47,091 nucleotides of DNA, taken from assembly GCF_003334255.1 (NCBI RefSeq), contig NZ_QOWU01000042.1. The stretch is one strand, 5' to 3'. The number at the start of each line of letters is the position of its first letter. Position 1 is the first letter of the stretch. Below are positions 13,518-14,086 of this stretch, in pieces. Under the pieces are notes generated by a model. It was not told where the DNA came from. It worked only from the letters and a program-made list of their open reading frames with translations, and did no database searches. The position numbers and the translations under genes are program-made. The stretch comes from Escherichia coli (GTDB lineage: Bacteria; Pseudomonadota; Gammaproteobacteria; Enterobacterales; Enterobacteriaceae).

Positions 13518-13699
13518 AAAACTGGCGCGACCTGCCGCGCTATAAACTAAAAAATTACACAAAATCATTCGCACTGCATCGAGACGGAAAGTGAATGAGG
13601 GCCGGGGAGCGTACTCGCAGTACGTGACCCGGGCGAATGAGCGTAGCCGTCGATGAGGCAGTGTGAAGGATGAAGTGTAAATAAAAAAGGAAGTGAGCA

Positions 13700-14086
13700 A
13701 TGCGTAAAAGCCTGTTAGCTATTCTTGCAGTCTCCTCGTTGGTATTCAGTTCGGCGTCGTTTGCCGCTGATCTTGAAGACAATATGGAAACCCTCAACGA
13801 CACTTTAAAAGTGGTCGAAAAAGCCGATAACGCGGCGCAAGTCAAAGACGCGTTAACGAAGATGCGCGCCGCAGCGCTGGATGCGCAAAAAGCAACGCCG
13901 CCGAAGCTCGAAGATAAATCACCGGACAGCCCGGAAATGAAAGACTTCCGTCACGGTTTCGATATTCTGGTTGGTCAGATTGACGACGCGCTGAAGCTGG
14001 CAAATGAAGGTAAAGTAAAAGAAGCGCAGGCTGCCGCAGAGCAACTGAAAACGACCCGCAACGCCTATCACCAGAAGTATCGTTAA
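13700..14086 (+). CDS. cybC: soluble cytochrome b562, full-length precursor with signal peptide
   Basis: 128-aa ORF; mature part [42 protein letters not shown]... matches cytochrome b562 as recalled. Confidence 0.9.

Follow-up and report, generated by a model that had tools for sequence, protein, structure and literature searches.

Enterobacterial repetitive intergenic consensus (ERIC) elements, also called IRU or RU-1, have been known since 1990–91, and were described by Sharples and Lloyd in 1990 and by Hulton and colleagues in 1991. Cytochrome b562 is widely used as the fusion partner and scaffold BRIL, and E. coli B (REL606) is the lineage in which it was classically studied. The published traits of ERICs are a length of 127 bp, terminal inverted repeats, flanking TA dinucleotides, co-transcription and orientation-specific effects that depend on RNase E (PMC2229807; PMC3184786; PMC10969869), and in Yersinia they are reported to affect the processing or stability of mRNA (work of De Gregorio et al. 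2005, reviewed in PMC2229807 and PMC10969869). A literature search found no publication naming both ERIC and cybC, the gene for cytochrome b562. We have analysed a stretch of 47,091 nucleotides from Escherichia coli (assembly GCF_003334255.1, contig NZ_QOWU01000042.1; the window), and within it cybC and the spacer that separates it from the upstream gene pmbA. It is highly probable, in our judgement, that this is a normal functional cybC locus in which an ERIC is co-transcribed as a passive hairpin, with a modest effect at most, and that the deletion which breaks cybC in K-12 is a separate matter.

The structured spacer upstream of cybC

The pmbA gene ends at 13517 and the spacer occupies 13518–13699 (182 nt). 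A first-pass annotation of this DNA had noticed nested inverted repeats and recurring GAATGAG and GATGAG motifs in the spacer, and these are where it placed them: gggccgggg (13599–13607) and cccgggc (13628–13634) enclose cgtact (13610–13615), cgc and agtacg (13619–13624), with GAATGAG at 13593 and 13635 and GATGAG at 13652. The 42-nt inverted-repeat core folds at -24.2 kcal/mol (z = -3.9). The repeats are real, but they had been under-described, being only the tip of a far larger structure. RNA-structure prediction, proposed there as a check, gives a hairpin of about 125 nt (13555–13680) with a minimum free energy of -63.8 kcal/mol, as against -31.5 +/- 3.8 kcal/mol for 200 dinucleotide shuffles (z = -8.45), none of which was as stable. 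The opposite strand of the element folds at -44.7 kcal/mol; RNA of the + strand folds better because the transcribed orientation alone allows G-U pairs. The hairpin stops 8 nt short of the Shine-Dalgarno (SD) sequence of cybC, and when folded in context the SD and the leader are unpaired with the ERIC.

The identity of the structure emerges from its relatives. Paralogues about 71–73% identical to it lie in the puuR-puuC and rhlB-gppA spacers, and the median E. coli genome has close relatives at 3 places; a search with the joined core of the ERIC1R and ERIC2 primers, whose sequences were confirmed from published papers, finds a median of 10. These two primers, set back to back as they naturally are, align with the centre of the element, with some mismatches and short gaps. 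The copies in the pgk-fbaA and ybhJ-ybhI spacers, which match the primer core at 100%, align with the window element from end to end, and share with it the termini ATAC(T/A)C..AAAT.ATTC on the left and GAAG.ATGA.G.GTAT on the right. When an nhmmer profile is made from no copies but those of other loci and other genera, it has a single match in the 47-kb window, at 13556–13679, which covers profile positions 2–124 of 125 (E = 1.3e-12); adding the two closest paralogues to the profile brings the element to E = 1.6e-18. Its length of 126 bp fits the ERIC length of about 127 bp, direct reading places a TA near either end (13556–13557 and 13678–13679), and the copies examined (puuR-puuC, rhlB-gppA, pgk-fbaA and ybhJ-ybhI) are all intergenic.

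Pairing is maintained across the family. In 16 copies, 95.1% of the cells of a 37-pair consensus hairpin are paired, compared with 32–46% when the register is shifted; 16 of the 37 pairs show compensatory double changes, and the architecture is the same in the five copies that were folded. Within the orthologous copy, one apical pair has changed from G-C to A-U in E. albertii and strain E69, and strain E01 shows the G-U intermediate. A lack of dispersed homologues would have spoken against the identification, and dispersed homologues were found. By these sequence comparisons we assign the structured DNA to the dispersed ERIC/IRU family and do not regard it as a feature particular to this locus. 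The spacer is long and structured because an ERIC of about 126 bp sits in it. This copy illustrates how a dispersed repeat can be mistaken on first reading for a locus-specific regulatory structure.

The first-pass annotation had offered a terminator or a regulatory RNA as the meaning of the repeats. A role as terminator of pmbA transcription, its first suggestion, is very improbable. The hairpin is stable, contains GC pairs and lies 3' of a stop codon, and in several other genera the equivalent spacer has a true hairpin followed by a T-run. In the window, however, no T- or U-run follows either the ERIC hairpin, where the next bases are AAAUAAAAAAGG, or the + strand of a small GC-rich hairpin that lies between pmbA and the ERIC (13523–13542), and a scan of 13300–14300 found no + strand terminator (the bases after the ERIC stem, AAATAAAAAAGG, contain no T-run). 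The 125-nt interrupted stem is also unlike an intrinsic terminator, and ERIC sits between co-transcribed genes elsewhere, as at pgk-fbaA. The ERIC was accordingly discarded as an intrinsic terminator, there being no U-tract after its hairpin. The terminator scan finds the small hairpin terminator-like on the - strand only. A hairpin occupies the equivalent position in C. amalonaticus, Cedecea and Phytobacter, and in Atlantibacter, Leclercia and Pantoea the equivalent post-pmbA hairpin is followed by a T-run.

Less credible still is an independent small RNA, or a small peptide, encoded by the spacer. The structural z-score is high, short open reading frames (ORFs) have been noted in ERICs (PMC2229807), and a 21-codon ORF starting with GTG can be read in the element. 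Against this, Rfam has no match in 13518–13699 even at E<=10 (search of 12900–14700), the spacer has no promoter-like site or + strand terminator, the element is a dispersed and dispensable repeat, and the short ORF lacks both an SD and conservation among the paralogues. The search of the whole window at Rfam gathering thresholds likewise returned nothing in the pmbA-cybC spacer; Rfam seems to contain no ERIC model.

Distribution of the element and its possible effect

Within E. coli the site is essentially biallelic. Among 5426 complete genomes, 3885 carry the filled allele (a copy of at least 90% identity) and 1539 the empty junction, which accounts for 5424 of the 5426 (72% filled, 28% empty). 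The empty allele lacks exactly the ERIC block, leaving a pmbA-cybC spacer of 54 nt. Four empty alleles from diverse haplotypes, with flanks 97–100% identical to the window, share one exact junction, GCGCCAAATCTTCATAATAAAAAAGG, and this resembles the ERIC-less arrangement of other genera, which have the conserved leader TTAATAATAAAAAAGGAAGTGAGCAATG in common. Recurrent deletion as the source of the empty allele was rejected on these grounds, the junction being uniform and like that of genera without the element. The element seems to have entered at a TA in the A/T-rich leader that immediately precedes the cybC ribosome-binding site, and a TA is found at the equivalent position of the empty allele. 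In E. albertii the orthologous allele is likewise filled, at about 91% identity; the insertion appears to be old, being common to that species, with both states persisting in E. coli. The two alleles on otherwise identical flanks, together with the repeated occupancy of this spacer in other genera, are a convenient system for studying the effects of an ERIC hairpin on neighbouring E. coli genes.

The 20–28 nt immediately 5' of the cybC ATG, (TTAATA)ATAAAAAAGGAAGTGAGCA, are far more conserved than the remaining spacer. They are identical in many genera, including Salmonella, Citrobacter, Enterobacter, Leclercia and Phytobacter, and 20-nt exact matches to the cybC leader are found in Citrobacter, Enterobacter, Salmonella, Kluyvera, Lelliottia, Phytobacter and others. 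Besides the SD, this sequence may contain a -10-like TAATAAT element. In Escherichia the ERIC sits within the conserved motif.

Species-representative genomes were scanned with a pattern for the C-terminus of pmbA, which yielded 120 loci (901 kb), and the pmbA-cybC synteny is widespread among them. The ERIC profile has 15 matches in these 901 kb, of which 13 lie within the pmbA-cybC spacer, three in Escherichia (counting one contig filed as Caballeronia) and ten in other genera (loci L046, L057, L078, L080, L103, L104, L110, L111, L112 and L121). Cedecea neteri and three Pantoea-like genomes have forward copies that adjoin the cybC SD, as in Escherichia. In Enterobacter asburiae, Citrobacter sp. 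MGH106, Leclercia adecarboxylata, Phytobacter diazotrophicus, Kosakonia sp. S29 and the Enterobacteriaceae metagenome-assembled genome UBA3516 the copies are reversed and start at the pmbA stop codon (TAA-TACCCGTCATACTTC). Nothing but a mini-ERIC remnant made of the two termini is left in C. werkmanii (L010) and C. gillenii (L089). In Yersinia, ERICs close to a stop codon reportedly share one orientation, and the recurrence seen here fits that rule. The contig filed as Caballeronia mineralivorans (NZ_AEJF01000297.1, L125; 396 nt) matches the pmbA-cybC spacer of E. coli, ERIC included, at 98.7% identity and is most likely E. coli contamination.

This recurrence is an argument for a dedicated cis-regulatory RNA acting on cybC or pmbA, that is, for an intercistronic processing or stability element which has been domesticated, so that selection explains why it keeps appearing. 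The concentration of 13 of the 15 matches in one spacer would suit such a function, as would the two consistent classes of position and orientation (forward at the cybC SD in Escherichia, Cedecea and the Pantoea-like group; reverse at the pmbA stop in Enterobacter, Citrobacter, Leclercia, Phytobacter and Kosakonia), the lower folding energy of the + strand RNA and the compensatory changes kept within the orthologous copy. Yet the E. coli genomes without the element (28%), like most genera that lack it, keep cybC and its conserved leader, and some Citrobacter hold remnants only. The upkeep of the palindrome and the G-U asymmetry are traits of the whole ERIC family, and an A/T-rich spacer with several TA dinucleotides is a good insertion target, which could by itself explain the recurrence. 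We consider this explanation unlikely. A related proposal is equally doubtful, namely that the spacer is a preferred and possibly selected landing site, with independent gains in at least three to four lineages in two stereotyped configurations, where the hairpin has been exapted to uncouple or tune cybC relative to pmbA; if this were true, the filled/empty polymorphism of E. coli would be a natural expression variant. The recurrence in this spacer goes slightly past textbook knowledge; the rest was already known.

We prefer the passive reading, which can be set out as follows. The ERIC would be transcribed within a read-through RNA from pmbA to cybC or within a long cybC leader, because pmbA and cybC run in the same direction, with no + strand terminator and no recognisable sigma-70 promoter between them (a scan for sigma-70-like promoters found none in the filled or the empty allele, and the empty allele also lacks a + strand terminator). 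Transcription would probably run in the orientation that folds better, and the transcribed element would form one long hairpin that leaves the SD free. Most likely it would act between the cistrons as a structural barrier or as a point of entry for RNase, with a modest influence on the processing or stability of the mRNA, in the manner reported for the ERICs of Yersinia. Such an effect on the pmbA-cybC mRNA is possible, and it is this much of the regulatory suggestion in the first-pass annotation that we would retain; as to a locus-specific RNA, the structure belongs to a dispersed family and is missing from 28% of the genomes. The ERIC is probably not a dedicated regulator of cybC, since cybC persists without it in that 28% and in most other enterobacterial genera, and the gene evidently does not need it.

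Some observations weigh against this account. Plain blastn with canonical ERIC copies as query gave no significant match in the window, whose copy is only about 63% identical to them; we take the miss to mean that it is a diverged member of the family, for which a profile and full-length alignment are needed. The left flank differs over 10–15 nt between filled and empty alleles (TATAAACTAAAAAAT versus CAAATCTTCA), so that a clean insertion with duplication of the TA is not demonstrable. The strong recurrence in a single spacer hints at more than neutral presence. Finally, both the joint transcription of pmbA and cybC and the place of the cybC promoter are deduced from sequence, and the promoter may lie between the ERIC and the ATG, where the TAATAAT-like motif is conserved in other genera; the ERIC would then fall outside the cybC mRNA.

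The cybC gene, its product and the K-12 lesion

The first-pass annotation had described cybC as encoding a complete cytochrome b562 precursor of 128 aa, and we agree. The ORF (13700–14086, + strand) starts with ATG, and its product matches Pfam PF07361 (Cytochrom_B562) over all of model positions 1–102 of 102 (E = 4.5e-33). Residues 23–128 align with residues 1–106 of the solved mature chains 256B, 1APC and 1QPU. Matches to the PDB range from E = 1e-63 to 1e-76, and a full-length precursor chain of 128 residues has also been deposited. We assign residues 1–22 to the signal peptide because the mature chains begin at residue 23; on direct reading, this segment has a positive n-region (MRK), a hydrophobic core and an A-x-A-like cleavage site, SFA|A. 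CybC is accordingly predicted to be a Sec-exported precursor that is cleaved to a periplasmic protein. The haem ligands Met7 (ADLEDNM) and His102 (NAYHQKYR; mature numbering) are present in the translation. The product is a soluble periplasmic cytochrome b562, a four-helix-bundle haem protein, and the mature protein has been seen as a peak at m/z 11783 in clinical isolates by matrix-assisted laser desorption/ionisation (MALDI) (PMC6561927).

The first-pass annotation was also right that K-12 MG1655 carries cybC as a pseudogene. The gene is annotated as such in NC_000913.3 (b4236, 4459488–4459855) and termed so in the literature (PMC3349551), and alignment with the window shows a 26-bp deletion, GTGAGCAATGCGTAAAAGCCTGTTAG, which takes the end of the SD region, the ATG, codons 2–6 and the first base of codon 7. 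Had K-12 carried the same intact gene, the contrast would have been void; its copy is broken. The significance implied for the intact gene of the window did not survive the comparison with the species. A 54-nt probe spanning the 13693–13718 segment finds the intact 5' end in 5069 of the 5426 complete E. coli genomes, while a 48-nt probe across the K-12 deletion finds its junction in 355. Of these 355, the 40 that were sampled are all K-12 laboratory lineages (MG1655, DH1, TG1, C600, EC600, J53, MC4100, BW2952, XL10, O16:H48 and others). Intact cybC is the norm in E. coli, and the 26-bp lesion is private to the K-12 lineage.

The contrast with K-12 stands apart from the ERIC and has a cause of its own, the lineage-specific loss of the gene start. 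Expression of cybC is reported to be far higher in B REL606 than in MG1655 (PMC3446290). The K-12 allele differs also near the C-terminus, with NSYHKKYR in place of the NAYHQKYR of the window. In K-12 derivatives the annotation pipeline PGAP calls a 121-aa “cytochrome b562” coding sequence from an ATT codon (L001, 1797–2162), and the lesion is thereby hidden. K-12 is atypical at cybC, which matters to work on periplasmic redox proteins or on the b562/BRIL scaffold that takes K-12 as its reference. Taken as a whole the locus is ordinary, consisting of a normal gene, a member of a known repeat family and, in K-12, a known strain-specific pseudogene, and its importance is small beyond bookkeeping.

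Neighbourhood and comparison with known systems

The window is a piece of E. coli chromosome with the gene order ppa-ytfQRT-yjfF-fbp-mpl-yjgA-pmbA-cybC-nrdG-nrdD-treCBR-mgtA...valS-holC-pepA-lptFG-leuX, which agrees with the annotation of REL606 and of K-12. Every one of the 5426 complete E. coli genomes has a match to the 801 bp around the pmbA-cybC spacer and cybC, several of them at 100% identity. Features of this region are collected in Table 1. Downstream, nrdG lies on the opposite strand and is convergent to cybC, and the perfect hairpin between the two is the probable end of both transcripts. A sub-threshold Rfam hit to mir-51 at this hairpin was dismissed as spurious.

Table 1. Features at and around the pmbA-cybC spacer (positions in the window)
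Feature	Position	Strand	Basis or remark
pmbA (tldE), metalloprotease gene	12165..13517	+	ORF; annotated pmbA in matching genomes; upstream neighbour of cybC on the same strand
Small GC-rich hairpin (GGCGCG-acctgc-CGCGC) just 3' of the pmbA stop	13523..13542	+	Fold -11.1 kcal/mol, z = -3.1
ERIC/IRU element, non-autonomous imperfect palindrome of about 126 bp, resembling a miniature inverted-repeat transposable element	13555..13680	+	Hairpin, paralogues, alignment with canonical copies, profile search
Apical stem-loop of the ERIC hairpin (nested inverted repeats)	13599..13634	+	Corresponds to the ERIC1R/ERIC2 primer core of the family
A-rich conserved leader with the cybC SD (ATAAAAAAGGAAGTGAGCA)	13681..13699	+	Just beyond the ERIC hairpin
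26 bp deleted in the K-12 lineage, intact in the window	13693..13718	+	Alignment with K-12
cybC signal peptide, residues 1–22	13700..13765	+	Mature b562 structures start at residue 23
Mature cytochrome b562, 106 aa and stop codon	13766..14086	+	PF07361, PDB matches
14-bp perfect hairpin between cybC and nrdG	14095..14126	.	Fold -23.3 kcal/mol, z = -7.8

Some E. coli strains carry a RelB/DinJ-RelE toxin-antitoxin cassette of about 0.7 kb between cybC and nrdG, so that the match extends over 1470 bp instead of 801 (window 14087–14130 versus L003 2188–2901); the window has no cassette. Elsewhere in the window, palindromic repeats of the REP type (Rfam naRNA4/CssrE) lie at 5151–5229, 11392–11469, 38301–38376 and 38397–38472, with a sub-threshold REP-like naRNA4 copy in the nrdG-nrdD spacer (14615–14678). 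The leader of mgtA (898-aa ORF, 21856–24552) contains a magnesium riboswitch (RF01056, 121.9 bits, 21647–21762). A match to Ysr276, a Yersinia antisense small RNA (175 bits, 39306–39500, + strand), runs antisense within pepA (38547–40058, - strand) and probably reflects conservation of the coding sequence, not a small RNA of E. coli. Beyond leuX, the gene for tRNA-Leu(CAA) (44588–44672), the DNA is strain-variable (44680–47091), being covered to at least 80% in only 461 of the 5426 genomes. Its 274-aa ORF (45206–46030) matches the PADLOC candidate defence family PDC-S32 (E = 6e-104), and no family was matched by a second ORF of 208 aa (46079–46705); annotations of this stretch in matching genomes name an AbiJ-NTD4 domain protein, a hypothetical protein, a transposase and an IS30-family transposase.

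The pseudogene cybC' of K-12 (b4236) is the orthologous locus, with an orthologous ERIC 98.4% identical to that of the window, and differs in missing the 26 bp at 13693–13718 and, hence, the ATG. Cytochrome b562 of E. coli B (PDB 256B) has the signal peptide, the mature boundary, the Met7 and His102 ligands and the pmbA and nrdG neighbours in common with the product described here, and the REL606 locus, with its 182-nt spacer, its ERIC and its 128-aa gene, is identical in architecture. The proteins differ by a few allelic substitutions, among them Thr13 and Val17 in the mature protein of the window, where the classical sequence has Asn13 and Ile17.

With the ERIC family the element shares a palindrome of about 126 bp folding into one long hairpin, terminal inverted repeats, TA at both ends, an intergenic position between co-directional genes, a dispersed multicopy distribution, strain-variable presence and the retention of compensatory pairing. 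It departs from the canonical copies at pgk-fbaA and ybhJ-ybhI in overall sequence (about 63% identity; its nearest paralogues, in the puuR-puuC and rhlB-gppA spacers, reach about 71%), in its GC-richer apical stem (GCCGGGG/CCCGGGC versus CCCCAGG/CTGGGG) and in its outermost bases (TTA...TAA versus ATA...TAT). Like the ERICs of Yersinia, the pmbA-cybC copy lies between two genes of the same strand, is presumably co-transcribed with them and would form a hairpin in the RNA, and its classes of orientation and position across genera recall the Yersinia rule.

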